NCBI GenBank assembly: GCA_963811905.1 | Contig: CAWETK010000011.1 | Span: 59,943 to 123,942, forward strand | Direction: 5' to 3' | DNA from: an uncultured Ignavibacteria bacterium | GTDB lineage: Bacteria > Bacteroidota > Ignavibacteria > Ignavibacteriales > Ignavibacteriaceae | Length of the DNA stretch: 64,000 nucleotides | In this document: piece after piece, positions 13,143-56,030 of the stretch | Position numbering within the stretch: the first letter of the stretch is position 1 | Layout of the letters: the number at the start of each line of letters is the position of its first letter | Program-made: the position numbers and the translations under genes | Notes under the pieces: model-generated | Told to the model about the DNA's origin: nothing | What the model saw: only the letters and a program-made list of their open reading frames with translations | Database searches by the model: none

Positions 13143-13535
13143 TCAACCAATCGCTTTAGCTATTAGAATCTATCTCATTAACCAACGCTTCAGCAATTGA
13201 ACTTCATCCCATCAACCAATGCTTCAGCAATTAAACTTTATCTCATCAACCAACGCTTCAGCACATCGGACTTCATCTCATCAACTAATGCTTCAGCACA
13301 TTGAACTTCATCCCATTAACCAATACTTTAGCATATTGAACTTTATCTCATTAACCAATGGCTTTAGCACATTGAACTTTATCTCATTAACCAATGCTTC
13401 AGCATGTTGAACTTTATCTCATTAACCAATGGCTTTAGCCATTGGACTCTATCAAACCCCTCTCCCATTAACCAATGGCTTCAGCCATTGGATTCCCATG
13501 CATACATAAAGTCCACCCCAACGGTTTTAACCGTT
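13143..13535. repeat. Array 2: ~10 copies of the same 35-bp unit as array 1. It ends in the perfect hairpins CCAATGGC-TTTA-GCCATTGG (13426-13445) and CCAATGGC-TTCA-GCCATTGG (13472-13491), followed by AACGGTT-TT-AACCGTT (13520-13535).
   Basis: Read directly from the sequence. It has the same orientation and the same terminal architecture as array 1. Confidence 0.9.
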
Positions 13536-17030: not shown

Positions 17031-17265
17031 GACAGGTCAGGCACCGCGAAAGATTTAATAATTATCGCGGTTATCGAGTGTTCCGAATGAAGCGAGATTC
17101 GTAAAAATATAGCGAGCGGAATGAGGAACGTATCGAGATATGAAGGCAAGGCCGGGACAGGTCGGGCACGGCGAAAGATTTAATAATTATCGCGGTTATC
17201 GAGTGTTCCGAATGAAGCGAGATTCGTAAAAATATAGCGAGCGGAATGAGGAACGTATCGAGATA
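17031..17265. repeat. Tandem duplication with a 125-bp period and a ~110-bp conserved core
   Basis: gacaggtc[a/g]ggcac[c/g]gcgaaagatttaataattatcgcggttatcgagtgttccgaatgaagcgagattcgtaaaaatatagcgagcggaatgaggaacgtatcgagata occurs at 17031-17140 and 17156-17265. A partial third start (tgaaggcaagggtcgggcaccgc) lies at 17413-17436. Confidence 0.9.
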
Positions 17266-32337: not shown

Positions 32338-33307
32338 TTATTTCATCTTTCCCGGATTTAACCTTTTAATCATTCCGCCTTTGGTATCCTTAATGTTATT
32401 TTTGATTATGAATGCTGAAGGATCGATCATATCAATTTCATTTTGAAGACGTGCAATCTCCAGTCTGGTAACAACTGTATAAATAATATCGACAGGCTTT
32501 AATTCACCTCCGTCGGGAGCATAACCTTTTTCTCCCTTATATATAGTAGTGCCGTGGCCGAGTTCTTCTGTAATCATTTTCCGGATATTATCACTCCTAT
32601 CGGATATAATAGTGATGCCGGTGTATTCTTCGATACCTTCGATGATAAAATCAACTGTCTTTGCAGCCGCGTAGTATGTAAGGATTGCGTAAAGAGCAAT
32701 CTCAACGGATAAAACATAAGCACCGACAGCAAAAATTAAGACATTAAAAATCAGAATTATATCTCCGATTGTAAGTCCCGATTTCTTACTCAGGTAAATT
32801 GCAAGAACCTCTGTTCCGTCAAGCACTCCCCCGCCTCTTACGGTTAATCCGATTCCTGCCCCAAGGAAGAATCCGCCGAAAGCCGCAACCAGGAGTCTTA
32901 TCCGAAGTTACTACAGGGTAATCAATAAAATAAACTGCAAGCGCTAAACCTATTATTGCAAGAATGCTTTTAACAGCAAATTGCAGCCCGATCTGTTTGA
33001 ACCCCAGAATTATAAAAGGAAGATTTATTATTATAAGTAAAATGGAAAGTTCAAAACCAGTGACTTCGGCGATAAGGAGAGAAATACCAGTTACCCCGCC
33101 ATCTATAAATGAATTAGGCAGCAGAAATCCTTTTAAGCCGAACCCTGCAAGAAGAAATCCCGCGGTTATAAGTACGAATTCCTTGAAAAACTGTATCAGC
33201 TTTAGTTTCATTAAATCAATTTCCCTGATGATGCTGTCCTCATCTACCCTGGTCTTTTTGTCACTAAGGGCAAATCGGGTGAATATTGTTTGAAATATAG
33301 GATTCAT
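32338..33307 (-). CDS. YitT-family membrane protein (DUF2179 C-terminal domain), interrupted by a 1-nt frameshift (~32897)
   Basis: Track ORFs 32819..33307 and 32338..32826 join as ...YPVVTSDK|LLVAAFGGFFLGAGIGLTVRGGGVLDGTEVLAIYL... when one base is removed. Confidence 0.7.
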
Positions 33308-33728
33308 TTTTTGCCTGAGCCTACTGTCCGGTGACTATTAAAAATAATTTTGGGAAATATAATCAGATTATGAACCGAAGATAAGACGAGCAGTCTTAAT
33401 TTGCAATTTATCCCGGCCGCAGAGCGGCGTAACATTAGTAGAAAATAGCATAAGCAGTAGTCATAAAGCCGCAGAGCGGCGACACGTCAATTTCTGGAAT
33501 AACAATACATCAGAGAATACATATTAAGGTCAGATTTAAGTTAAGGGAACATTTTAAATAATAAGGCCATTAAGTGAAGTTCAAAACCGGCAGTTATACA
33601 ATTCTCAAACGGATTATCCAATTGCTAAATAGTGAGACCACAAATCCCCCCTTTACCGCCTCAGCGGTTTTAATATAAAATCAGATATATTATGAGGCGG
33701 CGATTATGATACTCCCCTGATTAATGAT

Positions 33729-34075
33729 TTGACTTTGATGCTTACATTAACTAATATTATCAAAAATAATTGCGGGAATTCAGTACAGGCGGAATGCATA
33801 TTAAATACTGAGCGGGGAATATATGGTCCGGTTTCTCATTTACTTTGGCACGATATCTAACTCTCTCTCTCTGCGGACGCAAAGATGAGCCGGGAATTTA
33901 TGTGCCCTGGGTTGTTCCCTGTAAATGAATTCTTTCAGTCCGCCATCTCTTATTTGCCGATTCCGGCAATTGTTAATTGTTCGTTACTCATTTCTAACTA
34001 TTTCCCTACAGGTTTTACATAGTACCGAAGAAATAAAATCTCTTTCCCGGGTTTAATATTTATTAAGAGGAATTT
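33729..34075 (+). promoter_or_regulatory. Conserved promoter plus ~320-nt leader, copy 1
   Basis: TTGACT (33729-33734), N17, TAATAT (33752-33757). From the end of the -10 hexamer to the ATG is 319 nt. The sequence is conserved with copies 2 and 3. Confidence 0.5.
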
Positions 34076-35824
34076 ATGATTATGAAATATCACCTCCTGA
34101 TTCTTTTGACAGCAATATCATTACCTGCATTAGCACAGAAAAATATTTTAAGTAATTACTTAAATAATCCGAATTATACGGTTTCTGTATCTAATGATAG
34201 TGTGGTTGATATCTATGATAAGCGTCATAATCATCATTGGGAGAAAAAAATATCTGTTTATCCTGAGAATAAAAATACTGCTGAGGCAAATCTTATTATT
34301 GAGTTGGATACTATTAATTTCCTCTCATATGACAGCTATTATAAAGAATGGGGGTATATCCCGGCAGTAAATAATCTTGGATCAAAATACATTGTTGTTG
34401 ATACAGATAACGATGGTAAAAATGAAATTTATGGTTATGGAGTTCAATATAACCAGGCACACTTTTTCTTTCAGCCAAGGATGTACAACCAGGTCAGTGA
34501 CTCATTGTTTACCCAAACATATTCCTTCCCCGACTCAGGCGCACCATTCTATGATATCGGGGACATTACTGGTGATGGACTGTTGGATTTAATCTTTGGC
34601 GGTTTTAACCCTCTTAAATTTTATAAACAGAACACTTCAACTGATTTAGTAAACAATTTCAACTTTGTTTATAATCCATTTGGACCTGTTTATCAGTTTA
34701 ACGATGTTACTTTTTACGATATTGATGGTGATGGAAACCAGGAATTAATTTATTACCTGTTTGCCGGTGAGGGGGATAGTGTTTGGTCATACAGTAATCA
34801 CGTTGCAAAGTACAATCCTCAGATAAACAATTATGAGATGATTTATTATAACAAGCCCCAGCCTGAATATTTTACTTCAGGCATATCAACAGGAGATTTT
34901 GATCAGGATGGCAAAGGGAATTTTGCAACCGGAAGTATCGCCGGCAAATTCTATGTATATGAATTTATTCAGGGCACCGAGTATGGCATTGAATTTACCA
35001 GTGAACTTGAAACCTATAATGCTTTCCTTACAATTATGACCGATGATATGGATGGAAATGGTAAACCGGAAATATGGATTGGCGGGGATTTTGGTAGTAT
35101 GCTTTATGGCGGAATAACAAGATTGTTTGCTTTTGAAGCTTCCTCTCCCGGCAACTACGAACAGGTTTACCAGATAGACATTCGCGGCTTGTTCTCGATG
35201 ATTTATGGAAAGCTCCGCTACACTGACCTTGACGGAGACGGAGGGAAAGACTTGTTCCTAACCAATGCAAATCTGGCTTTCGGGTTTAAGTATGATGGAA
35301 ACGGAAATTATTATATGGATTTTATAAAGAGAATGCCGGAGCTTGATACTGTTTATGTTTATCAGTCATTGGACAGAGTTGATATTGCTGATATTGACAG
35401 AGACGGCAAAACCGAAATTATTCCTGAATATACGTTATACAAAGGTTGGGATGGGTCCCTGGAAAAAAGATCTGTATTCCTTAAGCGGGACAACTTAACA
35501 AGTACCAAAGAAGCAAACACTTTTTATCCATCAGAATTTAATTTGCTGCAGAATTATCCAAATCCATTCAATCCTTCTACCAGGATAAAATTTACCCTAT
35601 CATCTGAATCTAAAATAAACATTAGAATTTATAACTTACTCGGGGAAGAGATAAAAGAATTGCTGACCGAAACCCGCAGCAGCGGTGAATATGAAATCGG
35701 CTGGAATGGAACAGACAGCTTTGGGACAAAAGTTCCATCAGGCATTTATTTCATTACTATGGAGGCAAATGCTCCGGATTCTTCGCCTTTTCGGAAAACA
35801 ATTAAATCAATTTTGGTTAAATAA
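34076..35824 (+). CDS. Secreted 7-bladed FG-GAP/VCBS-repeat protein with a T9SS C-terminal sorting domain (paralog A)
   Basis: It has a signal peptide and seven Dx[DN]xDGxx[DE]-type repeats (DTDNDGKNE, GDITGDGLLD, YDIDGDGNQE, GDFDQDGKGN, DDMDGNGKPE, TDLDGDGGKD, ADIDRDGKTE). The C-terminus reads LLQNYPNPFNPSTRIKF...IYNLLGEE...GIYFI. Confidence 0.85.
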   Translation: MIMKYHLLILLTAISLPALAQKNILSNYLNNPNYTVSVSNDSVVDIYDKRHNHHWEKKISVYPENKNTAEANLIIELDTINFLSYDSYYKEWGYIPAVNNLGSKYIVVDTDNDGKNEIYGYGVQYNQAHFFFQPRMYNQVSDSLFTQTYSFPDSGAPFYDIGDITGDGLLDLIFGGFNPLKFYKQNTSTDLVNNFNFVYNPFGPVYQFNDVTFYDIDGDGNQELIYYLFAGEGDSVWSYSNHVAKYNPQINNYEMIYYNKPQPEYFTSGISTGDFDQDGKGNFATGSIAGKFYVYEFIQGTEYGIEFTSELETYNAFLTIMTDDMDGNGKPEIWIGGDFGSMLYGGITRLFAFEASSPGNYEQVYQIDIRGLFSMIYGKLRYTDLDGDGGKDLFLTNANLAFGFKYDGNGNYYMDFIKRMPELDTVYVYQSLDRVDIADIDRDGKTEIIPEYTLYKGWDGSLEKRSVFLKRDNLTSTKEANTFYPSEFNLLQNYPNPFNPSTRIKFTLSSESKINIRIYNLLGEEIKELLTETRSSGEYEIGWNGTDSFGTKVPSGIYFITMEANAPDSSPFRKTIKSILVK

Positions 35825-35980
35825 TTTTTATTAAGGGCAATAAAATGTTAAAGTTAAATTGGTTGAATTAAATGATAATGATCGTTTCGAGTTGTAATGT
35901 TATACAAATACCATAGTCCCTCTTAGGTAACCTTCCCTTTAAAAGTGTAAATCACTAAATCATGCAAGTGTTTTTCATAT

Positions 35981-36086
35981 CTTTATTCGCCCTGCGGATT
36001 CAACCCTGTGTTTCCTTCCGCACTTGGGACATGTAATCTCGGGACTGTTCATTCCGAATCCCGGCGGCATCTTTATCTTTAATCCG
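35981..36086 (-). pseudogene. Relic of the last ~32 codons of an M48/HtpX-like gene
   Basis: The minus strand reads GLKIKMPPGFGMNSPEITCPKCGRKHRVESAG. By eye it is ~85% nt-identical to the 3' end of the intact gene at 40335-40440. Confidence 0.7.
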
Positions 36087-36110
36087 TTGAGGGTTGTCTT
36101 AATTTCTGAT

Positions 36111-36457
36111 TTGACTTTGATGCACGCATTAACTAATATTACCAGAAATAATTGCGGGATTCAGTACAGGCGGAATGCATAGTAAATACTGATCGGGGAA
36201 TATATGGTCCGGTTTCTCATTTACTTTGGCACGATATTTAACTCTCTCTCTCTCTCTGCGGATACAAAGATGAACCGGGATTTATGTGCCCCGGGTTGTT
36301 CCCTGCAGATGAATTCTTTCAGTTTCTCATCTCTTATTTGCCAATTCCGGCAATTGTTAATTGTTCGTTACTCATTTCTAATTATTTCCCTACAGGTTTT
36401 ACATAGCTTTGAAAAAATGAAAGTTTATTTCTTTCCATATCTATTTTTAAAGGAAAA
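36111..36457 (+). promoter_or_regulatory. Conserved promoter plus ~320-nt leader, copy 2
   Basis: TTGACT (36111-36116), N17, TAATAT (36134-36139). It is 319 nt to the ATG at 36458 and near-identical to copy 1 apart from small indels. Confidence 0.5.
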
Positions 36458-38233
36458 ATGATGTCGAGTCTTACAAGATCCCGCCTTATGGGAAAAGTTT
36501 TGATATTGATTTCTTACATACTAGTATTTACTGGATTTGCTCCCGCACACGAGTATAAGCCATACGACACCTTTAACAAAGAATATGAGCTGCGAAAGTT
36601 TGTTAACCAGGGCGGAAAAGTTGAAGAAGTATCCCCTGATGTTTATAAGCTTACAAACCGGGTTGGAGAAAGCAGAACTTTCTATCTGGACAGTAAAGAA
36701 AATGTAATTAAAAATAGCCAGCCTGCTGATACAACGATAATAAACATCTGGGAAATAGATACTACAAAGTTTGCAGGTATGTTTACTTTTTGGCAGAAAG
36801 TAGATGTTGCAAATATTTCCTTCTGGTTGCCTCAACCAGTTGAAGATTTAAATGATAATGGTCGTCCAGAGTTATACGGTTATACAAATACAGCTGATTT
36901 AGCTGGGCCGGTAAAAATATTTGAAAGAAATTTAAACGGAATTTACCAAAACATATTCAGCTATGATACGCTTACAGCATTTGTTAAAGGGATTGCTGAT
37001 ATGAACGGCGATGGGAATAAAGAAATTCTCCTGGCAAAATATGGTGACGGAGGATTGACCTATATCTGGAATTATGCCATTTATACAAGTGATTCCACAA
37101 GCGAATTGCCTATTACATTCGATTTCACCTTTTACGTAGATACACTCCAGATTGACAATATGGCATTTGGTGATTGGGATAATAATGGAATAACAGATTG
37201 TGCTTATACTACTGATTCTGGCTGGGATACTACAAGATTTGCCATAGCTGAATTTAGAGACAGCATACATAACTTTGCAGAAGTATTCAGATTTGCATCA
37301 GTTTTTGAGAGTGACTTGTCCGGATTTGCAATTGATGATTTTGATCAGGATGGCAAAATTGAATTGGTGAGTAGCTCAGGACCCGGTAATGTTTTTGTAA
37401 TCGAAAATAATGATGAAAATGAGTATTCAATTGTTAGTCAGTTTCCGTTTCCTGTTCCGAACACTTATATGCAAACCGCAACAAAAGATATTGATGGAAA
37501 CGGAAAACCTGAATTCTGGATTGGCGGGCAGGATTTTGAGGAAGGAATTACCGTTTACCAATGCTACGAAGCTAATGGAGATAATAGTTATAAATCCGTT
37601 GCCAGAATCGAACTAAGATATTCAACTTCATTTGCTGCAAATTACATTCAGACAATTGATATTGATAACGATGGTAAAGAAGAGTTGATTATTTCAAGCG
37701 GTAACATAATCCTGGTTCTCAAATTTGTTGGTTCTCCTGAGAATCACCAATATAAGCTTTGGTATGCTAAGCTCGGTGAAGCAACTCAGTCCGGAGCTCA
37801 ATTTTTCCTTCCGGGAATTGCTGATCTTAACGGAGATGGGGAGAAAGATTTGGTTATACCTATGGACAAATATACCCCATCATTAACTTATGTTTTCAGT
37901 TATATCCTACGACAAGATAAACCAAATCGAGTAGCAGAACCGACAAACAATAATAAATCATTTGAAGTTATTCAGTCCTACCCCAATCCTTTCAACTTAG
38001 AAAGTACAATCAGCTTTAATGTTATAGAAACTTCTAACGTTCAGATAAGCATTTACAATTTATTAGGGAAAGAAATAAACTCGCTGCTTGATAAAGAACT
38101 CTCCCCGGGAAACTATTCCATCCCCTGGGATGCAAAGGATAAATTTGGTAATTCGCTGCCTAGCGGAGTTTACCTGATTGTCCTTAAAACAAATAAATCA
38201 GTTAAGATTTTTAAATCTGTTTTACTTAAATAA
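36458..38233 (+). CDS. Secreted 7-bladed FG-GAP/VCBS-repeat protein with a T9SS C-terminal sorting domain (paralog B)
   Basis: Seven repeats (DLNDNGRPE, ADMNGDGNKE, GDWDNNGITD, DDFDQDGKIE, KDIDGNGKPE, IDIDNDGKEE, ADLNGDGEKD). The C-terminus reads IQSYPNPFNLESTISF...IYNLLGKE...GVYLI. Confidence 0.85.
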   Translation: MMSSLTRSRLMGKVLILISYILVFTGFAPAHEYKPYDTFNKEYELRKFVNQGGKVEEVSPDVYKLTNRVGESRTFYLDSKENVIKNSQPADTTIINIWEIDTTKFAGMFTFWQKVDVANISFWLPQPVEDLNDNGRPELYGYTNTADLAGPVKIFERNLNGIYQNIFSYDTLTAFVKGIADMNGDGNKEILLAKYGDGGLTYIWNYAIYTSDSTSELPITFDFTFYVDTLQIDNMAFGDWDNNGITDCAYTTDSGWDTTRFAIAEFRDSIHNFAEVFRFASVFESDLSGFAIDDFDQDGKIELVSSSGPGNVFVIENNDENEYSIVSQFPFPVPNTYMQTATKDIDGNGKPEFWIGGQDFEEGITVYQCYEANGDNSYKSVARIELRYSTSFAANYIQTIDIDNDGKEELIISSGNIILVLKFVGSPENHQYKLWYAKLGEATQSGAQFFLPGIADLNGDGEKDLVIPMDKYTPSLTYVFSYILRQDKPNRVAEPTNNNKSFEVIQSYPNPFNLESTISFNVIETSNVQISIYNLLGKEINSLLDKELSPGNYSIPWDAKDKFGNSLPSGVYLIVLKTNKSVKIFKSVLLK

Positions 38234-38247
38234 AAAGGTGGTATAAT

Positions 38248-38440
38248 ATGAAAAAGATTCTATTCTTATTCGTATTTCTGTTTTCAGCAGTTTTACTTGC
38301 ACAAACACAAAACTGGACTTCTGTTAAAGAGACAAACATCAATGTCGTCAATGCAGTAAATTTGGGCGGTGTAGACATTTTCACTAACAGGGATGGGAAT
38401 CATATCATAGTCCAGGAAGGTAATTATTTATTAACACGAA
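38248..38440 (+). pseudogene. N-terminal fragment (~64 codons) of a secreted-protein gene, truncated at the junction with paralog A'
   Basis: A good RBS and signal peptide (MKKILFLFVFLFSAVLLAQ) are followed by TQNWTSVKETNINVV...NRDGNHIIVQEGN. The ORF then runs out of frame into the start of the next gene. Confidence 0.5.
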
Positions 38441-38449
38441 GTTATAATT

Positions 38450-40198
38450 ATGAAAAAGTATTTATTAGCTCTATTAACCGTAACTGCATTACCTGCAATA
38501 GCACAAAATAATATTTTAAGTAATTACTTAAATAATCCAAATTATACGGTCTCTGTATCTAATGATAGTGTGGTTGATATCTATGATAAGCGTCATAATC
38601 ATCATTGGGAGAAAAAAATATCTGTTTATCCTGAGAATAAAAATACTGCTGAGGCAAATCTTATTATTGAGTTAGATACTATAGACTTCGCTTCCTATGA
38701 CAGCTATTATAAACTCTGGGGCTATATCCCGGCAGTAAATTCTTATGGAGTAAAATACATTGCCGTTGATGCTGATAAAGATAGTAAGAATGAAATATAC
38801 GGCTATGGAGTTCAATATAACCAGGCACATTTTTTCTATCAGCCAAAGATTTATAACCAGGCCATTGACTCATTGTTTACCCAAATTTATACTTTCCCTG
38901 ACTCCGGCGGACCATTTTTTGATATAGGGGATATTACTGGTGACGGGCTATTGGATTTAATCTTTGCTAGTTTTGATGGTAATAAATTTTATAAACAAAA
39001 CACACCAACTGACTTAATAAACAGTCTGAATTTCATTTACAATCCATTCCCACCTGTTTATCAGTTTAACGATGTTACTTTTTACGATATTGATGGTGAT
39101 GGAAACCAGGAATTAATTTATTACCTGTTTGCCGGTGAGGGGGATAGTGTTTGGTCATATAGCAATCACGTTGCAAAGTACAATCCTCAGATAAACAATT
39201 ATGAGATGATTTATTATAACAAGCCCCAGCCTGAATATTTTACTTCAGGCATATCAACAGGAGATTTTGATCAGGATGGCAAAGGGAATTTTGCAACCGG
39301 AAGTATCGGGGGCAAATTCTATGTATATGAATTTATTCAGGGCACCGAGTATGGGATTGAATTTACCAGTGAACTTGAAACCTATAATGCTTTCCTTACA
39401 ATTATGACCGATGATATGGATGGAAATGGTAAACCGGAAATATGGATAGGCGGGGATTTTGGCAGTATGCTTTATGGCGGAATAACAAGATTGTTTGCTT
39501 TTGAAGCATCCTCTCCCGGCAACTACGAACAGGTTTACCAGATAGACATTCGCGGCTTGTTCTCGATGATTTATGGAAAGCTCCGCTACACTGACCTTGA
39601 CGGAGACGGAGGGAAAGACTTGTTCCTAACCAATGCAAATCTGGCTTTCGGGTTTAAGTATGATGGAAACGGAAATTATTATATGGATTTTATAAAGAGA
39701 ATGCCGGAGCTTGATACTGTTTATGTTTATCAGTCATTGGACAGAGTTGATATTGCTGACCTTGATGGTGATGGAATAGTTGAAATTATACCTGAATATA
39801 TATTATACAAGGGGTGGGAGGAATCGTGGGAATTAAGGTCCGTATTCCTCAAGCGGGACAACTTAACCGGTATTAAAGAAGAAAATACTATTCAACCTGT
39901 TGAATTTGATTTAATGCAGAATTATCCAAATCCCTTTAACCCTGATACCAGGATAAAATTTATTGTTTCCTCTGAATCTAAGATAAGTATTAGAATTTAT
40001 AACGTACTCGGGGAAGAGATTAAAGAATTATTAAATGAAACCCGCATCAGCGGCGAATATGAAATCGGCTGGAATGGAACAGACAGCTTTGGGACAAAAG
40101 TTCCATCAGGCATATATTTCATTACTATGGAGGCACATAGTTACATACAAAATTCGTTGCCTTTTCAGAAAACAATTAAATCAATTATGGTTAGATAA
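38450..40198 (+). CDS. Secreted 7-bladed FG-GAP/VCBS-repeat T9SS protein (paralog A', same length as A)
   Basis: 582 aa, collinear with A. Two blocks are nearly nt-identical to A (about 38497-38700 and 39060-39765), separated by diverged blocks. Confidence 0.85.
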   Translation: MKKYLLALLTVTALPAIAQNNILSNYLNNPNYTVSVSNDSVVDIYDKRHNHHWEKKISVYPENKNTAEANLIIELDTIDFASYDSYYKLWGYIPAVNSYGVKYIAVDADKDSKNEIYGYGVQYNQAHFFYQPKIYNQAIDSLFTQIYTFPDSGGPFFDIGDITGDGLLDLIFASFDGNKFYKQNTPTDLINSLNFIYNPFPPVYQFNDVTFYDIDGDGNQELIYYLFAGEGDSVWSYSNHVAKYNPQINNYEMIYYNKPQPEYFTSGISTGDFDQDGKGNFATGSIGGKFYVYEFIQGTEYGIEFTSELETYNAFLTIMTDDMDGNGKPEIWIGGDFGSMLYGGITRLFAFEASSPGNYEQVYQIDIRGLFSMIYGKLRYTDLDGDGGKDLFLTNANLAFGFKYDGNGNYYMDFIKRMPELDTVYVYQSLDRVDIADLDGDGIVEIIPEYILYKGWEESWELRSVFLKRDNLTGIKEENTIQPVEFDLMQNYPNPFNPDTRIKFIVSSESKISIRIYNVLGEEIKELLNETRISGEYEIGWNGTDSFGTKVPSGIYFITMEAHSYIQNSLPFQKTIKSIMVR

Positions 40199-40207
40199 TT
40201 TTTAAAA

Positions 40208-40255
40208 ATTCCGGCAATTGTTAATTGTTCATTATTCATTTCTAATTATTTCCCT
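40208..40255 (+). repeat. Orphan 48-bp copy of the 3' part of the conserved leader
   Basis: attccggcaattgttaattgttcattattcatttctaattatttccct matches 33960-34007 and the equivalent part of copy 2. No gene follows it. Confidence 0.8.
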
Positions 40256-40329
40256 CGCCGGCTCACCCGTAACTCTGGAAAGTTCCTCGTTGTCTTCCCT
40301 GGTATTTGCCCCTTATTTATTTAAATAAT

Positions 40330-41571
40330 TCAGATCTTTATCCTGCCCGCTGATTCTACTCTGTGCTTCCTTCCGCATTTGGGACAGGTGATTTCGGGTC
40401 GGTTCATTCCGAATCCCGGCGGCATCTTTATCTTCAATCCGCATTCACAGGTAATGGTGGAATAATCATTAACTGCCATCATTATATTTCCAAACTTCCT
40501 TTTTTCTTCTACAGCAGTCTGCGGTTCTTCCTGATCCCCGGCAGCCCTCAAAGGAATAACTGCACCATCTCTTAATCCCGAAGCAGGAATAATTGCGGCT
40601 GATGATCTCTTCAATGCCGAAAACGATTTTTGATAATCATTATATCCGGCTCCATACATCATTCCCCGCAGAATTCTTATCCTCTCTGTAATGGGCGGAT
40701 GTGTACTTGTCAGGTCTGACAACTTCATACCCTTTTTCTTTAATGGATTTGCAATATACATTGCGGCAGTTGCCTTGTTTGCAGAAGGAAGATCGTCGCG
40801 GCAATCGGATATTTTTTCGAGCGCTGATGCAAGCCCTTCCGGGTATCGTGTAAGTCTTGCTGAAGATGCATCGGCGAGGTATTCTCTTTTCCGTGACAAA
40901 GCAAAATAGAGCAGTCTTGCCATAATGGGTGCTAAGATTGCAAAAATTACTGCAATGGCAAGAATAATAATTTGTGCCTGTCCCCCGCTGTTCTTTGATC
41001 TCGACCCGTATCTCCTGCCTGCACCTGAAAAGAACATTCCCTTAACAAATATCTCAGAAATAATTACAATTGTTCCAAGCATAACAGCAGCATATGTAAT
41101 AAATTTGGTATCGCGATTCATTATGTGAGATATCTCGTGGCCAATCACTCCCTGCAGTTCATCCCGGTTGAGTTTTGACAATAAGCCTGCTGTAACCGCA
41201 ACGGCGCTGTGTGAAGGGTCTTTTCCGGTGGCAAAGGCATTAAGTGCAGGACTATCGATTATGTAAACTTTAGGCATTGCTGGCAGTCCTGCTGCTAATT
41301 TCATCTCCTCAACTACATTAAAGAGCTGCTGGTGAACTGCGGGGGTTACCTCTTTTGCCTGGCTGATGGATAGCACCAATGAACTGCCGGCCGTGACACT
41401 GATAATCGATAAAACTGTCCATATTATAATCGCTATGGAAAGACCGAATACTCCTCCGCCTTCGGGAACAAAAGCGCTCCCGATCAGATAGCCGAGAAGC
41501 ATCAGTGTGACTGCCATTCCTACAAATAGAAAGATTGACTTTCTCTGGTTGGATTTTATTAATTCCCACAT
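40330..41571 (-). CDS. M48-family (HtpX-like) zinc metallopeptidase with a C-terminal zinc ribbon
   Basis: It has TM helices, the HEISHIMNRD HExxH motif, and a C-terminal CECG...CPKCG ribbon. Confidence 0.85.
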   Translation of the reverse strand: MWELIKSNQRKSIFLFVGMAVTLMLLGYLIGSAFVPEGGGVFGLSIAIIIWTVLSIISVTAGSSLVLSISQAKEVTPAVHQQLFNVVEEMKLAAGLPAMPKVYIIDSPALNAFATGKDPSHSAVAVTAGLLSKLNRDELQGVIGHEISHIMNRDTKFITYAAVMLGTIVIISEIFVKGMFFSGAGRRYGSRSKNSGGQAQIIILAIAVIFAILAPIMARLLYFALSRKREYLADASSARLTRYPEGLASALEKISDCRDDLPSANKATAAMYIANPLKKKGMKLSDLTSTHPPITERIRILRGMMYGAGYNDYQKSFSALKRSSAAIIPASGLRDGAVIPLRAAGDQEEPQTAVEEKRKFGNIMMAVNDYSTITCECGLKIKMPPGFGMNRPEITCPKCGRKHRVESAGRIKI

Positions 41572-41586
41572 TTTATATGCAAAGCC

Positions 41587-42144
41587 TTATGAGAAACTTA
41601 CCTTCGGAACTTCTTTCTCTGCCTTATCTTCTACTTCAAAGAAATCTTCCATTTTGAAATTGAACATTCCTGCAACAATATTCGAAGGGAACATCTGGAT
41701 CTTATTATTATAAAATAAAACCTGGTCATTATAGCTCTGGCGCGAAAATGAGATCTTATTTTCTGTTGATGTAAGTTCTTCCTGCAGCGCAAGGAAGTTC
41801 TGGTTTGCTTTCAGGTCAGGATAATTCTCAACTACCAGGTTAAATTTACCCATTGCTTCAGTAAGCCGGGCTTCTGCTTTTGCTTTCTCCGAGACACCCT
41901 GAGCACTTACCGCCTGGCTTCTTGCATTTGTTATATTTTCCAGCGTCGCCCTCTCATGGTTCATATAACCTTTTACGGTCTCGATCAGGTTGGGTATTAA
42001 ATCATGACGTCGTTTGAGCTGAACGTCAATCTGCGCCCAGGCATTCTTAACCTGGTTCCTTAATCCTACAAGTGAGTTGTAATTCCCAACAAAATACAGC
42101 ACTCCGATTACAATTAATACTAAGACAATTATTCCTATAACCAT
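41587..42144 (-). CDS. lemA: LemA family protein
   Basis: An N-terminal TM helix is followed by YNSLV.LRNQV.NAW.QIDVQLKRRHDLIPNL and FYNNKIQMFPSNI. Confidence 0.85.
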   Translation of the reverse strand: MVIGIIVLVLIVIGVLYFVGNYNSLVGLRNQVKNAWAQIDVQLKRRHDLIPNLIETVKGYMNHERATLENITNARSQAVSAQGVSEKAKAEARLTEAMGKFNLVVENYPDLKANQNFLALQEELTSTENKISFSRQSYNDQVLFYNNKIQMFPSNIVAGMFNFKMEDFFEVEDKAEKEVPKVSFS

Positions 42145-42154
42145 TTTAACCTCA

Positions 42155-42550
42155 TTAATTATTTAATTTATGAGCAAACATTTCCTTTAGAAGTCCTATA
42201 ATCTTGTCCTGCTTATCAAGTCCTCCCATCTCTACAACCTGTTCCAGCTCGCCTTCATTGAACCAGAAGCCATGATCTTTTCTGCATTTATCAAGTGTAA
42301 CCTTGTTGTCTGTCCCGCAGGTAACCTTTTCCATCTTCTTACGGCAGATGGGACATTTGATGATTTTCTCATCGGAATTCTTATTCTCAGAAAATGAATT
42401 CAGCAGCAGCATTTTTTCTTCCGAATCCTGAAGAAGAAGTTCCAGCTCTCCATTATCAAGCCAGATGCCATGACAGTTTGTACAATAATCTATCTCTACC
42501 TGGTTCAATTCGAGGATAACCAGCTGGTTATTGCAAAAAGGACAGTTCAA
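42155..42550 (-). CDS. Double zf-TFIIB-type zinc-ribbon protein
   Basis: It has two repeats of the pattern C..C (CPFC, CPIC) ...........C..CHG.W.D.GEL. (NCHGIWLDNGELE, DHGFWFNEGELE). Confidence 0.7.
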   Translation of the reverse strand: MNCPFCNNQLVILELNQVEIDYCTNCHGIWLDNGELELLLQDSEEKMLLLNSFSENKNSDEKIIKCPICRKKMEKVTCGTDNKVTLDKCRKDHGFWFNEGELEQVVEMGGLDKQDKIIGLLKEMFAHKLNN

Positions 42551-42860
42551 ACTCGACTCCTTTAATATAGAACAAACTTAGTCAAAAAGAATTTCGAATT
42601 CATTATTATTTTAACGATTTATTCTTCCCATTCCATTTAATTCATAAAAAGCAAACCCTGAATTATATACTTATAATATGGTATTATGTAGGAATTTCAT
42701 TTATAAAGTTCTTTATAAAACAAAGAACGAAAATAGTATATAGCCAATTAATCAGATTTCTTCTTAATAGCGGATCCACAAATCCCCCCTTAACAGCTTT
42801 AGCGGTTTTAATACAAAATCAGATCACTTATGGCAAATGACTACTTACCTGCTTGCTGAT

Positions 42861-43207
42861 TTGACTTTAATGCCTGCATTAACTAATATTTATTCAGTAC
42901 AGGCGGAATACATATTAAATACTGAGCGGGGAATAATGGTTCAGTTTCTCATTTACTTTGGCACGATATTTAACTCTCACTCTCTCTGTGGTGGAAAGAT
43001 GAGTTGGGAATTTTTGTGTTTTCGATTTTTCTTTTCAAATGATATTATTCTTTCTGAATTTTTATTTATTGTCCTTCCACTTCTACCACATTCGGCAATT
43101 GTTAAATCTCCATTGTACATTTTTAATTTTTTTCCTAACGGTTTTACATAAAACAATAATTGATTTAATATTCTGCATCTTTTTATTACCAATAACGGAG
43201 GTTAATT
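42861..43207 (+). promoter_or_regulatory. Conserved promoter plus ~320-nt leader, copy 3 (5' half conserved, 3' half diverged)
   Basis: TTGACT (42861-42866), N17, TAATAT (42884-42889). It is again exactly 319 nt to the ATG at 43208. Confidence 0.45.
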
Positions 43208-44661
43208 ATGAAAGCTGTATTATTATTTCTGATTTTTTTACCAGCTTATTCCCTGATTGCTCAAGAAAATTATAGTAAAAAGCTTACCCGTTTTGGGAAA
43301 ATTGATTCAAGATTTATTCCTCAGTCAAATATTAATTATTATCCACTTACAGATGGTGACTACTGGGAATTTATTGAAACCGATACAGCAACTGTTACCG
43401 GTCAATTTTATGAGAGCGGACTGAATTTTTCTTTTACTAAAGAAATTCTTTATGATACGGTTTTATCAAACGGGAATAGCTATAACAGAATCAAATGGAA
43501 TAATGAAGCCAACAGCGTAAATTATCCTCCGGTTTATGAGTATCATAGGAAAGATTACTTGGAAATGTCTTTTTGTTTTACCAGGGTAATGATTACCTGC
43601 TTTTTGATGTTAACGCAAATACAGGAAATACTTATCCGGCACATCTTCCCGGGTACGTATGGTTGGTAGCAAATAAATATAATATTGTTGGTTTTGGAGA
43701 TACTCTTTCTGCTATCGATTTTAATCTTCTAGAGAATGGAATAACATTAAGGGAAACCTATACCTTAGTCGAAAACTTTGGTTTGACATATTATAGAAAG
43801 AATATAGGCGGCTATAATTTGCCCGAAGGCAATTTCTGGGGCGCAGTGATAAACGGAGATGAATTCGGAACCTTAATTGTTAATAAGCAGCAAGTTGATT
43901 GGTCAGAATATTACCCCTTACATATTGGTGACTATTGGGTTTATGAGGGGGAATCAGGAAGTATACCATTCGTAGAAACTCATAGAATAACAGGTGATAC
44001 AATTATGCCAGACGGGAACACCTATTTTATTAAAGATTCTATAATTCTTGAGAGATTGGATAGCGCAGGTAGATTATTTGTATGGTCGGATAATAACTTA
44101 TCGGGAGTTCTAAATTATAAATTTACTGATATATTGGGCGACACAGCAATTAATTTTAACATAGGTAATTCTTTCTGGCGACTTGACAATAAATTTTATA
44201 ACAATAACAGATATGAGATATATAGGTTTTTATATCCTGACTTGATTTATTACGGTCAGTATTTTGATCAAGGTTTAGGATTGTATGAATGGACAATTGA
44301 AGGAGGATATGGAATATTAAAAGGCGCTTACATAGATGGGACTCTTTATGGGGATACAACTGTTACTTCACTATCAGAAAACTCAAACTATACTCCGGAT
44401 AGATTCATCCTTTATCCAAATTACCCAAACCCCTTTAACTCTATAACAAATATCTCTTTCTATTTGCCTGTTTCCTCCAATGTCCAGTTAATCATTTATA
44501 ATATGCTCGGAGAACAGGTGAAAATCAGCAGTAATAAATTTTACAATTACGGCTTTCATTCGGTAATACTTAATGCTAATAATATGTCTACTGGGGTCTA
44601 CATATGCGTCTTGAACACAGATAAAAAACGAGTTAGCAAAAAAATGGTTCTTTTAAAATAA
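43208..44661 (+). CDS. Secreted protein with a T9SS C-terminal sorting domain, interrupted by a frameshift near 43558
   Basis: Track ORFs 43208..43669 and 43573..44661 join as ...YEYHRKD.LGNVFLFYQGNDYLLFD.... There are two YYPL..GDYW repeats. The C-terminus reads LYPNYPNPFNSITNISF...IYNMLGEQ...GVYIC. Confidence 0.7.
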
Positions 44662-44675
44662 AGGAGATTATTAAA

Positions 44676-45082
44676 ATGAAATACTTATTTAAGATTTTTA
44701 TTTTATTTGTAATACTTTCTCTCAAAAAGGATCAATTCCAAGCGACTCTGTTATTGCTAATGTGCGTGGGGCAAATCCGAGTAAAGAAATCCCAGAGCAA
44801 GTTACTCAACTTAAACCTCTTCAATATGAATTAAGTCTGAATTATCCTAATCCTTTTAACCCAACAACAAGCATAAATTACCAGGTAAAAGAAAAAGGTT
44901 TTGTATCATTAATAGTTTATGATATGCTGGGAAGAGAAGTTTCCGATCTTGTGAATGAGAATCAGGACGCGGGAAAATATTCAGTAATATTTAAGGCGGC
45001 TAACCTACCTTCCGGAGTTTACATCTATTCAGTAAGAGTGAATGACATTGTTAAGAATAATAAGATGACTTTACTGAAGTAA
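44676..45082 (+). CDS. Mini T9SS cargo: signal peptide, ~40-aa linker and C-terminal sorting domain only (frameshifted near 44715)
   Basis: An AAGGAG RBS lies 9 nt before ATG 44676 (MKYLFKIFILFVILS). The next frame continues SQKGSIPSDSVIANVRGANPSKE...LSLNYPNPFNPTTSINY...VYDMLGRE...GVYIY. Confidence 0.5.
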
Positions 45083-45095
45083 TTTTCTAAATCAA

Positions 45096-45124
45096 GGGGG
45101 TAACTACTTGTGTTACCCCTTTGT
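45096..45124. terminator. Bidirectional rho-independent terminator between convergent genes
   Basis: GGGGTAAC-tacttgt-GTTACCCC is followed by TTTG. The preceding bases are A-rich for the opposite strand. Confidence 0.6.
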
Positions 45125-53273: not shown

Positions 53274-54632
53274 CTACTTACCTATACAGAATTTTGTAAA
53301 AATATTGTTTAATATGTCGTCTGAAGTGACAATTCCTATAATTTCTCCAAGATCATCAGCCGCTTTTCTTAAATCCACAGAGATAAATTCTCCACTCATC
53401 CTGTTTTCTACTGATTCTTCAGCATTTTCCAGGGTTTCTTTTGCTTTTCGCAGGCATTCATAATGCCGGGAGTTGGAAACAATTGCACCTTTTTCACTAT
53501 AGGAAGAGGAACCAAGCGCCTTTTCTTTCATCATTAAAAACAAATTTTCAATACCTTCTCCTGAAAGAGCAGAAATAGCAGCATCATAATTTTCTGTGTC
53601 ATTATTCCCTAAATCAATTTTATTCAGGACCTTCAGGATTTTGTTTTCATCAGTAAGTTTTTTGATTTCCTCCAGTAATTCGTCAGATCTCCCTTGTTCT
53701 ACATCGCTGATCAATAGTACTAAATCTGCATCTTTTACTGCCTGTCTGCTGCGAAGAACACCTTCTATTTCAATAACATCTTCAGAGATCCGTATCCCTG
53801 CGGTATCATACAATCTAAAAAGAATTCCGTCAATCGAAACATCTTCTCTGATAATGTCCCTGGTAGTTCCCGGGATATGGCTGACTATAGCGCGCGATTC
53901 CTTCAGTATATAATTCAGCAGGGAAGATTTGCCTACATTCGGCTTTCCAACCAGTGCCGCATTTACGCCGTCTTTAAGTACTTTACCAAATGAATAGCTC
54001 TTTAACAAAGTTTCTATTTCTGTCCTTATTTTCTTAATTCTTTCGCTGAGTTCACCCAGATTCACGAATTCCACATCTTCTTCTGCAAAATCAAGTTCCA
54101 GCTCCACAAAAGAAGAAACATTTATGAGCGAACTCCGGATCTCATCAACTTTTTTGGAAAGCATCCCGTCGAGCTGGTTCCTCGCACCCCTCAGTGAAGC
54201 ATCTGTTCTTGACGATATTACATCAGCTACTGCTTCAGCCTGGGCAAGATCTATCCTGTTATTCAAATAAGCTCTTTTTGTAAATTCTCCCGGTTCAGCC
54301 TGCCTGGCTCCATTCCGAAGAAGGAGTTCTATAATTTGCTTTGATATTAAAGGATTTCCATGAGTGCTTATTTCTACAGAATCCTCTCCGGTATATGAAT
54401 GTGGATCCTTGAATACTGAAATCAATACATCATCAATCAAAACACCTCTTTCATTAACGATCTCACCATAATGAATAGTATGAGATTCCGAATCAGATAA
54501 TCGCTTTTTACCCCGGAATATTTTATCTGATATCTCAAAGGAAAGAGGGCCGCTGACCCGGATGACAGAAATTGCCCCGGCTCCCGAAGGAGTTGCAATT
54601 GCCGTAATTGTGTCTTCGGTATATTTATTCAT
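53274..54632 (-). CDS. mnmE: tRNA modification GTPase MnmE (TrmE)
   Basis: It has TIAAIATP, G1 GKPNVGKSSLLN, DTAGIR, and the C-terminal FCIGK. Confidence 0.95.
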   Translation of the reverse strand: MNKYTEDTITAIATPSGAGAISVIRVSGPLSFEISDKIFRGKKRLSDSESHTIHYGEIVNERGVLIDDVLISVFKDPHSYTGEDSVEISTHGNPLISKQIIELLLRNGARQAEPGEFTKRAYLNNRIDLAQAEAVADVISSRTDASLRGARNQLDGMLSKKVDEIRSSLINVSSFVELELDFAEEDVEFVNLGELSERIKKIRTEIETLLKSYSFGKVLKDGVNAALVGKPNVGKSSLLNYILKESRAIVSHIPGTTRDIIREDVSIDGILFRLYDTAGIRISEDVIEIEGVLRSRQAVKDADLVLLISDVEQGRSDELLEEIKKLTDENKILKVLNKIDLGNNDTENYDAAISALSGEGIENLFLMMKEKALGSSSYSEKGAIVSNSRHYECLRKAKETLENAEESVENRMSGEFISVDLRKAADDLGEIIGIVTSDDILNNIFTKFCIGK

Positions 54633-54871
54633 CTGGTTTAATTAGCAGAAACAAGTCTGCAAAAATATGGAAATAATTGTGCATTAACAATCCAAAGATT
54701 CGACGCTATGCTCAACTCATCCCTTCCTCCCCATCTTTCCGTCTCCCGTCTCCCCGTCACTCAGTCTCCCCATCTCTCAGTCCCTCAGTCTCTCCTGTCT
54801 CTTAGTCTCTCAGTCCCCCCGTCTCTCAATCCCTCCATCTCCGCGTCTCTCAACCTCTCCTTCCACTTTCC

Positions 54872-54923
54872 ACATACGTCTCACATACGTTCCACATACG
54901 TCCTACATACGTCTCATATACGT
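54872..54923 (+). repeat. Five phased copies of an 11-bp unit with core ACATACGT
   Basis: Cores are at 54872, 54883, 54894, 54905 and 54916 (the last is ATATACGT), giving an exact 11-bp spacing. Confidence 0.9.
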
Positions 54924-55113
54924 CCTACCTACCTTCCTCAAACGCTCAAAATATTTAATTGTCCCTCCTTCTCTCAGTCTCTCAATCCCTCCTTCTCTCC
55001 GTCTCTTAGTCACTCAGCCTCCCCGTCTCTCAGTCCCTCGTCTCTTAGTCTCTCCCTTCTCTCCGTCCCTTAGTCACTCAGTCCCCGTCTCTCAACCTCT
55101 CTTTCCACTTTCC

Positions 55114-55165
55114 ACATACGTCTCACATACGTTCCATATAGATCCTACATACGTCTCACATACGT
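55114..55165 (+). repeat. Second array of five phased 11-bp units with core ACATACGT
   Basis: Cores are at 55114, 55125, 55136 (degenerate ATATAGAT), 55147 and 55158. Confidence 0.9.
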
Positions 55166-55565
55166 CTTACCTTCCCTCCTTAAACACTCAAAAAGGGTCA
55201 GCCCCCGCCTTTCCTCAATCTCTCCGTCCCTTAGTCTCCCAATCTCTAAGCCCCTGGGTATCTTCCCCCGTCTCTCCGTCCCTCAGTCTCTCCGTCTCTC
55301 AGTCTCTCAGTCCCCCCGTCTCTAAGTCCCTTAGTCACATAACCCCCCGCCTCACCGTCTATACAAAATTTGTCCGGTTTATTGCCATTTTTATGATTCC
55401 GACTATCATTTTGTATATAAAGTCTGCCATTTTGTCAAACAGTATCCTTTGCAGTTCTATCCTCGTAACTCTTTATGATATATATTGTTATAGGAATTCT
55501 AAGCGGCTGGCATTTTAGTTGTTACAGTGTAAATGACATTAAAAATTATAAAGGAGGAAAAAATT

Positions 55566-56030
55566 ATGGCAATAGTAAGATGGAATCCTTCAAAGGATTT
55601 ATTAAACATTGAACGTGAGTTCAATAGAGTGTTCAATTCTTTTAATAGAAGATTTGGTTTTGGAGATTCTGATGAAGAAGTGGCTGAATATGAAAATGCT
55701 GTATGGTCTCCTCTTACTGATATTACTGAAGATGAGGATGGCTATAAACTGAAGCTTGATCTTCCTGGTGTGAAAAAAGAAGATGTGAAAATAAATTATG
55801 AAAATGGTCAGCTGTCAATAAGCGGAGAAAGAAAACAGGAGACTGAGAAAAAGAATTCAAAATACCACAGGGTTGAAAGATCATACGGCAGGTACTTCAG
55901 ATCTTTTAATCTTCCTTCAAAAATTCAGGAAGATAAAATCGATGCTGAATTTAAGGACGGACAATTAACCATTACCGTTCCTAAATCCGAAGAAGCAAAA
56001 CCAAAACAAATTGAAGTTAAAGTAAAATAA
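55566..56030 (+). CDS. Hsp20/alpha-crystallin small heat-shock protein
   Basis: An AGGAGG RBS precedes ATG 55566 (MAIVRWNP). The alpha-crystallin core reads DITEDEDGYKLKLDLPGVKKEDV...GQLSISGERK...AEFKDGQLTITVPK. Confidence 0.9.
   Translation: MAIVRWNPSKDLLNIEREFNRVFNSFNRRFGFGDSDEEVAEYENAVWSPLTDITEDEDGYKLKLDLPGVKKEDVKINYENGQLSISGERKQETEKKNSKYHRVERSYGRYFRSFNLPSKIQEDKIDAEFKDGQLTITVPKSEEAKPKQIEVKVK

Follow-up and report, generated by a model that had tools for sequence, protein, structure and literature searches.

A candidate phase-variable, translated leader module upstream of type IX secretion cargo genes in Ignavibacteriaceae

In a 64,000-nucleotide (nt) stretch of DNA from an uncultured Ignavibacteria bacterium (GenBank assembly GCA_963811905.1, contig CAWETK010000011.1, positions 59,943 to 123,942), hereafter the window, three copies of a leader of ~347 nt each precede genes for cargo proteins of the type IX secretion system (T9SS). 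The leader copies are a real, non-random feature that is out of the ordinary, and what a sequence-only reading of this DNA had proposed as a possible cis-regulatory RNA is better read as a translated leader open reading frame (ORF) that can be switched by a repeat. We give roughly even credence to the hypothesis that this leader ORF is phase-variable and gates the expression of the T9SS cargo, probably in a random ON/OFF manner. Comparison of the copies and their homologues shows a common order of predicted elements: a sigma70 promoter, an upstream start whose frame (ORF1) runs through a conserved TGGCACGAT block into a simple-sequence tract, a Shine-Dalgarno (SD)-like sequence with a start codon, a small ORF (ORF2) ending in PTGFT and a stop, a TCTCTTTCCC spacer and the SD of the cargo gene. 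The copies lie at 33729-34075 (copy 1), 36111-36457 (copy 2) and 42861-43207 (copy 3), and their 5' features, together with sequences related to the leader, are as follows.

33729..33757, + strand: promoter-like site of copy 1, with the -35 hexamer TTGACT at 33729-33734, a 17-nt spacer and the -10 hexamer TAATAT at 33752-33757.
36111..36139, + strand: promoter-like site of copy 2, TTGACT-N17-TAATAT.
42861..42889, + strand: promoter-like site of copy 3, TTGACT-N17-TAATAT, with the perfect palindrome TTAATGC-CT-GCATTAA in the spacer.
33625..33694, + strand: upstream box of copy 1, 81% identical to the box of copy 3.
42763..42832, + strand: upstream box of copy 3, which matches the box of copy 1.
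40207..40255, + strand: orphan leader fragment of 49 nt, 96% identical to 36343-36391 and corresponding to the middle of the small ORF (codons ...LPIPAIVNCSLLISNYFP).

Two blocks of the leader, TTCAGTACAGGCGGAAT and GTTTCTCATTTACTTTGGCACGATAT (22 and 26 nt), occur exactly three times each in the window and not once in 100 shuffles. Leader identity amounts to 89.4% between copies 1 and 2 and to 79.4% between copies 1 and 3. In comparisons with copy 3, the 5' part of the leader, up to the repeat, is ~93% (92-94%) identical, whereas the 3' part falls to ~70%, which agrees with the strong 3' divergence of this copy noticed from the sequence alone. The coordinates proposed earlier for the three copies also hold, as do the identity of TTGACT-N17-TAATAT among them, the box common to copies 1 and 3, and the orphan piece of leader after the cargo gene designated A'. 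The upstream box is absent at copy 2 and at the orthologous loci L002, L003 and L008 (L numbers designate sequences outside the window); inside the box of copy 1, a terminator-like hairpin, ACCGCCTCAGCGGT+TTTTAAT, is situated at 33655-33668.

In the alignment of leader homologues, the -35 hexamer TTGACT and the TTGA that follows it are kept in every clade, and a TAnTnn hexamer (TAATAT, TAGTTA, TAATTT, TATTTG or TAATTA) is found 16-18 nt past it across clades. This phylogenetic footprint supports the prediction of a sigma70-type promoter, and the conservation of its elements bears out the earlier proposal of a promoter and a long 5' region before T9SS cargo genes. The distance of exactly 319 nt from the end of the -10 hexamer to the ATG is indeed shared by all three window copies, through compensating indels, but the relatives have 321, 296, 322 and 322 nt because the length of the (CT)n tract varies; exact spacing was thus rejected as a constraint, and the equality inside the window is coincidental. 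The spacer motif, earlier described as a hairpin ATGC-NNN-GCAT, is in fact a palindrome with a 2-nt centre, TTRATGC-NN-GCATTAA, which is perfect in copy 3 only, deviates at one position in copy 2 and at two in copy 1 (ACAT), and is not kept in the next clade. Three other promoter arrangements were considered and rejected. A proximal promoter at GGTTTTACA (TTTACA-N17-TAATAT) is present in copy 3 only, the other copies being without its -10 element; matches to the Bacteroidetes-type TAnnTTTG promoter are inconsistent; and for the repeat as a promoter-spacer switch, no -35/-10 pair flanks the tract in the window clade and the spacing in the poly-C clade is inconsistent.

To the question of further copies, raised by the sequence-only reading, the searches gave a clear answer: about 25 homologous copies were found on ~18 non-redundant Ignavibacteriaceae contigs and in at least nine genomic contexts, all co-oriented with and upstream of a Por_Secre_tail gene, that is, one encoding a T9SS C-terminal domain (CTD), or its remains. 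An exact 20-mer scan of GTDB genomes led to three Ignavibacteria metagenome-assembled genomes, and a gapped-pattern scan of metagenomes yielded two real loci, the other 14 of its 16 matches being due to chance; a match in a Pseudomonas genome (L004) was likewise dismissed as chance. A protein search with gene A, the cargo gene behind copy 1, retrieved homologues with 89% to 46% identity, all of them from Ignavibacteriaceae where named; the contigs of eleven such homologues were taken, and an nhmmer search with a leader profile together with a motif search recovered the modules. The contexts unrelated to the locus of the window, where YitT-family and M48 peptidase genes are the neighbours, include Mfd, RND efflux, aconitase, SIR2 and TonB receptor genes, among others. 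Since modules stand before cargo genes in these unrelated contexts, the module travels with the cargo genes and not with the locus. The loci obtained from the DNA-pattern scans, which are free of bias towards cargo homologues, agree with the association with cargo.

The leader is ~90% identical to that of L008, while at 4-fold degenerate sites the neighbouring genes are 59-75% and gene A 81.5% identical, and other intergenic stretches no longer align; by this comparison, the leader is more conserved than neutral sequence. It is hardly credible, in our view, that the copies merely persist as neutral remnants, with no function of their own, after a recent segmental duplication. Scars of tandem duplication are present in the window, yet the leaders of copies 1 and 2 are 89% identical although the proteins encoded behind them, A and B, share only 28% identity, and modules persist across cargo homologues down to ~54% identity as well as in the unrelated contexts.

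The nature of the conservation in the 3' half is revealed by the alignment of 17 upstream regions from several clades. A block, CCTACAGGTTTTACATAG, located ~55-70 nt 5' of the cargo ATG, varies almost only at third bases and, read as codons, gives Pro-Thr-Gly-Phe-Thr-stop, with all four Pro and all four Thr codons in use; the exceptions in this ending are Thr to Asn in copy 3 and Thr to Ile in L002 and L036. The PTGFT frame is open for 42-76 codons before the stop in almost every copy. Over the 42 codons that lead up to the terminus in 18 copies, composition-matched shuffles would give 38.8 stops in each frame; the counts observed are one for the PTGFT frame, 10 for the +1 frame and 67 for the +2 frame, and the sole stop in the PTGFT frame belongs to L008, which has a 1-nt deletion. 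A 15-nt indel that separates copies 1 and 2 from copy 3, L021 and L022 is in frame. By these codon patterns, the leader is not simply non-coding, and its 3' half holds a conserved frame that is predicted to be coding. In the window, the small ORF and the spacer take the following form.

33885..34022, + strand: small ORF of copy 1, MSREFMCPGLFPVNEFFQSAISYLPIPAIVNCSLLISNYFPTGFT, with the stop TAG at 34020-34022.
36284..36406, + strand: PTGFT frame of copy 2, beginning with the second ATG (36284) and closed by TAG at 36404-36406; the first ATG, at 36270, is out of frame by a 1-nt deletion after 36272.
42999..43151, + strand: small ORF of copy 3, also read as a 71-codon fusion from 42936.
34039..34048, + strand: spacer motif TCTCTTTCCC of copy 1, between the small-ORF stop and the cargo SD AAGAGGAA (34065-34072).

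The small-ORF start is situated at a homologous position and is mostly ATG, with TTG or GTG in a few copies, and a G-rich SD-like sequence (GGAGAG, GGTGGA or GGGG) lies 5' of it. The predicted peptides comprise 42-55 residues, with M1, a loose FLCP at positions 5-8, (Y/N)E near position 15 and the ending (Y/F)(F/Y)PTGFT, in which P, G, F and T never vary and the internal T is kept in at least 90% (13 and 10 sequences); nine further members show this ending as well, one of them in the form STGFT, and the rest of the peptide shows ~30% identity. The distance from the stop to the cargo ATG is 49-56 nt in most copies. Most lineages use TAG as the stop, after which come CTTnAAAAAAG, the conserved TCTCTTTCCC, an AT-rich stretch and the cargo SD. 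A profile search identified eight predicted proteins with the same ending, and 16 clusters of 53-102 amino acids (aa) with this C-terminus, except for one STGFT, emerged when 1.84 billion representatives were searched exhaustively. No Pfam or NCBIfam match to the small ORF was found at E up to 1, bar one chance match (E=0.07). In L002, a ~27-nt deletion (6860-6903) removes the small-ORF stop and fuses a PTGFI frame in phase with cargo gene A, and in L026 (~5946) and L027 the stop is mutated to TAT.

The second component of the module is the simple-sequence tract, which always stands directly after the invariant TGGCACGAT(A/T)(T/G)TT(T/A)A(C) and just 5' of the SD of the small ORF. Its type depends on the clade: the clade of the window and several more have (CT)5-14, a sister clade has C8-9, and a single copy has G9; in all clades it occupies a homologous position within the upstream reading frames. 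Tract length is the main difference among near-identical leaders. Copy 2 and L001 carry (CT)8 and (CT)9, with two substitutions in 358 nt; L013, L008 and L038 carry (CT)9, (CT)10 and (CT)11, with 1-2 substitutions in ~360 nt; and L029 and L030 carry C8 and C9, with no substitution in 403 nt. The leaders with 9, 10 and 11 units belong to three separate JGI contigs and, apart from the tract, show just the 1-2 substitutions and a few single-base indels. The upstream frames of the window are listed below.

33823..33888, + strand: ORF1 of copy 1, MVRFLIYFGTISNSLSLRTQR and a stop, the TGA overlapping the small-ORF ATG (ATGA).
33846..33854, + strand: TGGCACGAT block of copy 1, conserved at the nucleotide level; 5' arm of a predicted hairpin.
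33861..33872, + strand: tract (CT)6 of copy 1, variable in length among near-identical relatives.
36204..36461, + strand: leader frames of copy 2, with the ORF1 ATG at 36204, TGGCACGAT at 36227-36235 and (CT)8 at 36242-36257.
42936..43151, + strand: fused ORF1-ORF2 of copy 3, 71 codons, MVQFLIYFGTIFNSHSLCGGKMSWEFLCFRFFFSNDIILSEFLFIVLPLLPHSAIVKSPLYIFNFFPNGFT and a stop, with TGGCACGAT at 42959-42967 and the internal ATG at 42999.

The upstream start in the window is ATGGTYCRG, at 33823, 36204 and 42936, and in the poly-C clade it is preceded by a strong GAGG SD. From this start, the ORF1 frame passes through TGGCACGAT and the tract, and its predicted stops fall at 21-23, 34-37 or 69-85 codons, as set by the repeat number n modulo 3. 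At n mod 3 = 0 (copy 1, L001, L002, L013), ORF1 stops at the TGA within AAAGATGAG, which overlaps the small-ORF ATG; at n mod 3 = 2, it reads straight into the small ORF, as in L038 (P0122, 69 aa) and likewise in the fused copy 3 and L021b; at n mod 3 = 1 (L008), it overruns by ~15 codons. In copy 2, an 85-codon ORF1 frame ends on the start of cargo gene B (ATGA), and the tract of copy 3 is an interrupted repeat, CTCTCACTCTCTCT, at 42974-42987. The fused phase accounts for about one third of all copies and for most database entries, and a share of one third is the expectation for unselected switching. In different clades, TGGCACGAT is read as FGT, LAR or WHD; its conservation is therefore at the nucleotide level, and a conserved ORF1 peptide was ruled out. 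In L023 (7130-7160) and L036 (~6770-6790 and 4500-4530), a GC-rich mini-hairpin (CCGCCGCGGCGG or CCGATAGCCGATGG) is placed right after TGGCAC and parts the conserved block from the repeat.

If the leader ORF is a phase-variable gate, the module and its cargo gene would be transcribed as one mRNA from the promoter, and slipped-strand mispairing would add or remove repeat units and thereby change the fate of ribosomes that start upstream. With n equal to 2 modulo 3, such ribosomes would read through into the small ORF and make a fused product of 69-72 aa; with 0, they would terminate on the ATGA that overlaps the small-ORF start and hand over there; with 1, they would overrun that start. The repeat would form the 5' side of a hairpin in which GGCACGA is predicted to pair on the outside with UYGUGCC (small-ORF codons 5-8) and the pyrimidine tract on the inside with the purine-rich SD/AUG, so that initiation at the small ORF would be hidden until upstream ribosomes open the hairpin. 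The flow of ribosomes to the PTGFT stop, which keeps a fixed distance to the cargo SD, could then set cargo output by coupling or an attenuation-like effect. The outcome would be stochastic, phase-variable expression of surface or secreted proteins.

The same frames might serve a product that acts in trans: a small, possibly membrane-bound protein that partners the cargo as an anchor, chaperone or immunity-like factor, whose synthesis is phase-varied by the repeat and with which the cargo is merely co-transcribed, without any role of the leader in cis. We regard this as possible but doubtful. The N-terminus of the long forms (69-102 aa), which the short forms are without, is basic and hydrophobic and, as judged by eye, resembles a signal or transmembrane (TM) segment; the small ORF has its own SD-like sequence and start; and FLCP and (Y/N)E are semi-conserved besides the C-terminus. 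Strong conservation is, however, confined to the last ~6 residues, with the ~30% identity elsewhere, and clades differ in which of three frames the upstream part is read. For the 71-aa form, AlphaFold2 arrived at no confident fold (pLDDT 53, pTM 0.25), and the conserved stop-to-ATG distance, together with the conserved nucleotides around and after the stop, suggests action in cis.

A structured non-coding RNA, such as a riboswitch, a thermosensor or a protein-binding leader, in which the open frame is incidental, would also account for the 92-94% conservation of the 5' part between paralogues, for a TGGCACGAT block conserved whatever the frame and for a predicted hairpin with moderately negative z-scores. 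Searches with Rfam 15 gave no match at the gathering score in the whole window and, at E up to 5, a single irrelevant match (E=2.5) in 33300-44800. Folding of the whole leader against shuffles gave z = +0.37, 0.00 and -0.13 for the three window copies, and RNAalifold on eight copies found 0 compensatory pairs and an unfavourable covariation term. Stop depletion in one frame and synonymous variation are unexpected for a non-coding RNA. The structured cis-regulatory RNA of the sequence-only reading has thus given way to an open frame with a hypervariable repeat, and we consider it quite unlikely.

A local hairpin around the tract, as invoked for the phase-variable leader ORF, is plausible from the folding predictions, not established. 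At strictly homologous positions, the GGCACGA:UYGUGCC helix is mostly kept, and its changes in copy 3 and L033b are G·U-compatible; the hairpin precedes the small ORF rather than following it, and a T-rich stretch comes after it in several clades. Several observations weigh against a phase-variable leader ORF, some of them concerning this hairpin. The helix closes the minimum-free-energy structure in 11 of 12 isolated segments (z -0.3 to -3.8), the ends of which were picked with knowledge of the helix; it is without rigorous covariation, with one apparent, shifted compensatory case (L025, GCAGA:UCUGC), and it is missing in L023a and L023b. The TCTCTT:AAGAGG pairing that would mask the SD is weak (4-6 pairs, dG -4 to -7 kcal/mol), and the leader shows no conserved canonical intrinsic terminator. 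With regard to the frame, substitutions at codon positions 1, 2 and 3 number 74, 73 and 115 (sum over eight pairwise comparisons), a modest, ~1.5-fold bias, so most of the peptide is weakly constrained. The GGT-TTT codons of the ending never vary and conservation extends past the stop (TAGCTTnAAAAAAG); part of the signal therefore resides at the nucleotide level. Indels of 1 nt break the frame in copy 2 and L008 and the stop is lost in L026 and L002, and thus some copies are decaying or tolerant of loss. Some of the differences in tract length may be assembly error, as other frameshifts are seen in the window and in L001, the signs of assembly indels being a split YitT gene in the former and a fragmented M48 gene in the latter. 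One cargo homologue, in L028 (gene at 6001), has no module, and most loci were reached via cargo homologues, so that the association is partly a matter of ascertainment. Finally, the transcription start site, co-transcription and translation of the small ORF are inferred from sequence.

The leader copies are embedded in a locus with a complex history, the main features of which are listed below.

34076..35824, + strand: cargo gene A, 582 aa, with FG-GAP repeats and a T9SS C-terminal sorting domain.
36458..38233, + strand: cargo gene B, 591 aa, with FG-GAP repeats and a T9SS CTD; 28% identical to A.
38450..40198, + strand: cargo gene A', with FG-GAP repeats and a T9SS CTD; 87% identical to A, without a leader of its own and preceded by a truncated start of a D-type gene (38248-38427).
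43208..44661, + strand: cargo gene C, with a T9SS CTD only; its N-terminal part is unrelated to A and B, and it has a frameshift near 43570-43670.
35974..36086, + strand: relic of the 3' end of an M48 peptidase gene just 5' of copy 2, a scar of tandem duplication; the intact gene is at 40330-41571.

The locus has a simple form in L008, consisting of YitT, a leader with gene A, and an M48-LemA-Zn-ribbon block. Given this form and the M48 relic, the window carries a tandem duplication of the unit leader, gene and M48 3' end that was later filled with genes and gene fragments; we infer that its three copies are products of the tandem duplication and recombination of cassettes of leader and cargo gene and not of independent invention. 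A 2.45-kb cassette at 35975-38427, which comprises the M48 relic, the leader, gene B and the D-type gene start, is 99.2% identical to L001 2127-4581, with flanks of 80-84% identity, and gene B is 100% identical to its L001 counterpart at 4-fold sites. This match points to a recent lateral exchange of the whole cassette or to a chimeric assembly.

The D-type gene, intact in L001 (4402-6171), is represented in the window by the N-terminal stub at 38248-38427 and a C-terminal relic at 44822-45121, 6.4 kb apart, and between these pieces lie A', the M48-LemA-Zn-ribbon block and copy 3 with gene C; an insertion or rearrangement that split the gene is suggested. A 47-nt piece after gene A (35865-35911), 83% identical to the interior of gene B (36845-36891), is filler at a recombination junction. 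Scars of the same type as the M48 relic are found at two other loci, where the cassette is bracketed by a duplicated Mfd/TRCF piece (L022 3900-4370 and 7095-9104) or by a duplicated S20 and radical-SAM piece (L026 4421-5195 and 9668-10703). The YitT-family gene of the window (32338-33307) is split into two overlapping ORFs, as opposed to a single 322-aa gene in L008 and L038; this split gene and the frameshifted gene C are either real pseudogenes or assembly indel errors.

Such traces bring up the idea, already voiced from the sequence alone, that the repeated leaders are chiefly portable recombination homology, by which cargo is swapped or amplified behind a fixed signal with silent copies such as A' as donors. 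The contrast between the 99.2% identity of the cassette and that of its flanks, the remains of neighbouring genes at the edges of cassettes in three unrelated loci (M48, Mfd/TRCF, and S20 with radical SAM), the leaderless A' and the leader and gene fragments at junctions, and the variable gene content at the same locus in relatives all speak for it, though circumstantially. In many genomes, however, the module is present in single copy without a recombination partner nearby; the signature of conservation is one of coding and initiation signals and not of mere homology; and the junctions are illegitimate, with filler fragments, and do not coincide with leader boundaries. Cassette exchange as such fits the data, but recombination looks like a consequence of the repeated modules and not the reason for their conservation, and we judge this account very unlikely.

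Other repeats were observed in the window. A 35-nt tandem repeat (consensus TCTCATTAACCAACGCTTCAGCAAATTGAACTTCA) forms two arrays, at 10414-10749 and 13138-13453, with ~9 copies each and 83-91% match; they lie ~2.4 kb apart and flank the ORFs 10854-11294 and 11403-13046. The intergenic stretch 54727-55336, between the divergent genes 53274-54632 (- strand) and 55533-56030 (+ strand), contains degenerate C/T-rich repeats of 8, 16 and 24 nt (GTCTCTCA-like), interleaved with 11-nt CCACATACGTC repeats. At 17031-17265, a 125-nt unit is repeated 1.9 times with 98% identity.

Much of what the FCB superphylum displays at the cell surface or releases as its secretome is T9SS cargo, and the regulation of single cargo genes is essentially unknown beyond a few Bacteroidota models. 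Should the leader ORF prove phase-variable, uncultured environmental bacteria would apply the logic of contingency loci to surface proteins, with evasion of phages or predators and attachment decisions as plausible uses. The module also offers a signature by which such genes can be searched, namely TGGCACGAT with a simple-sequence repeat (SSR), followed by PTGFT and a stop ~50 nt before an ATG, and it carries a warning for annotation, as the long 'intergenic' regions before T9SS genes in Ignavibacteriaceae hide a missed small gene. In the literature searched, no report of phase variation or of an upstream ORF was found for either Ignavibacteria or T9SS cargo.

Among known systems, arrest peptides such as SecM, MifM and VemP, and the NSP-stop and NAP-stop upstream ORFs of Bacteroidota (PMC10987492), likewise combine conservation restricted to the C-terminus by the stop with a hydrophobic N-terminus (here in the long form, as judged by eye) and a fixed position relative to the downstream SD. 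The small ORF could accordingly encode an arrest peptide of the 'monitoring substrate' type, in which PTGFT-stop stalls the ribosome at termination, membrane targeting by the N-terminus, available in the fused phase only, relieves the stall, and the stall remodels the spacer so that the cargo SD is exposed or hidden. Up to three of the four features used for screening in that work may be found here: a conserved C-terminal motif is present, and the long forms have, as judged by eye, a hydrophobic N-terminus that may be a signal or TM segment, more than 30 residues before the motif. 'X-stop' arrest families have been reported in Bacteroidota (PMC10987492), and TAG followed by C in most lineages, the invariant GGT and TTT codons and the conserved stop-to-ATG distance would all suit a stall. 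As to the first of the four features, a place upstream of a sec or yidC gene, the downstream gene here is neither of these and encodes FG-GAP or other Por_Secre_tail cargo that is itself secreted. PTGFT is unlike any known arrest motif, RAPP-like and Pro-stop motifs included, no stable stem that sequesters the SD is predicted in the spacer, and the hydrophobic N-terminus may merely reflect a T-rich sequence. An arrest peptide is in our opinion unlikely. In its more specific form, a long shot, PTGFT-stop would be a new class of nascent peptide and the tract would toggle between a membrane-targeted long form, with the stall relieved by Sec/YidC pulling, and a cytosolic short form that stalls constitutively; such a toggle would couple stochastic phase variation to the sensing of secretion capacity, neither of which is known to have been described in this phylum.

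Promoters of the sigma54 type are defined by GG at -24 and GC at -12 with a fixed spacing, in the form TGGCACG-N4-TTGCW. The TGGCACGAT region contains a perfect -24 half, TGGCACG, with a palindrome ~100 nt upstream. A sigma54 promoter with an enhancer was nevertheless rejected, as all copies have AA or TA in place of the -12 GC (TTAAC, CTAAC or TTTAC) and the palindrome is clade-specific; no canonical sigma54 site was detected elsewhere in the window.

SSR contingency loci, for example the CTCTT repeats in the signal-peptide region of Neisseria opa genes, resemble the module in several respects. Both have a hypermutable pyrimidine repeat in a hydrophobic N-terminal coding part, a link to surface proteins and a length that differs between near-identical strains; here the tract is inside the upstream frames and its length differs in near-identical genomes, with assembly error as a possible contributor. 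The repeat of contingency loci, however, is within the gene for the surface protein itself, while that of the module is in a separate small ORF upstream.

The closest system is the pil1 pilus operon of Streptococcus gallolyticus, which is under the attenuation-like control of a phase-variable leader peptide: the gene for this peptide contains GCAGA repeats, and on these depends whether the translating ribosome gets as far as a terminator and disrupts it (PMC3894217). By analogy, the module has a simple-sequence repeat in a small ORF 5' of genes for surface structures, the repeat lies inside the predicted leader ORF, its number sets the frame and the position of the stop relative to a downstream hairpin, and stochastic ON/OFF expression may be expected. 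The two differ in phylum and target, a streptococcal pilus as opposed to T9SS cargo in Ignavibacteriota, and in the repeat, which is a pentamer in pil1 and (CT)n or a homopolymer here, within a hairpin that also holds a second initiation site. Moreover, the frame that follows in the module is a conserved small ORF in its own right, with a conserved C-terminal motif; the module shows no canonical terminator and is known from sequence alone. The proposed design is a variation on phase-variable leader-peptide control and contingency loci, for which no prior description was found for T9SS cargo or Ignavibacteria in the literature searched. If the proposed switch is real, it would constitute the second independent case of the rare repeat-in-leader-peptide design.

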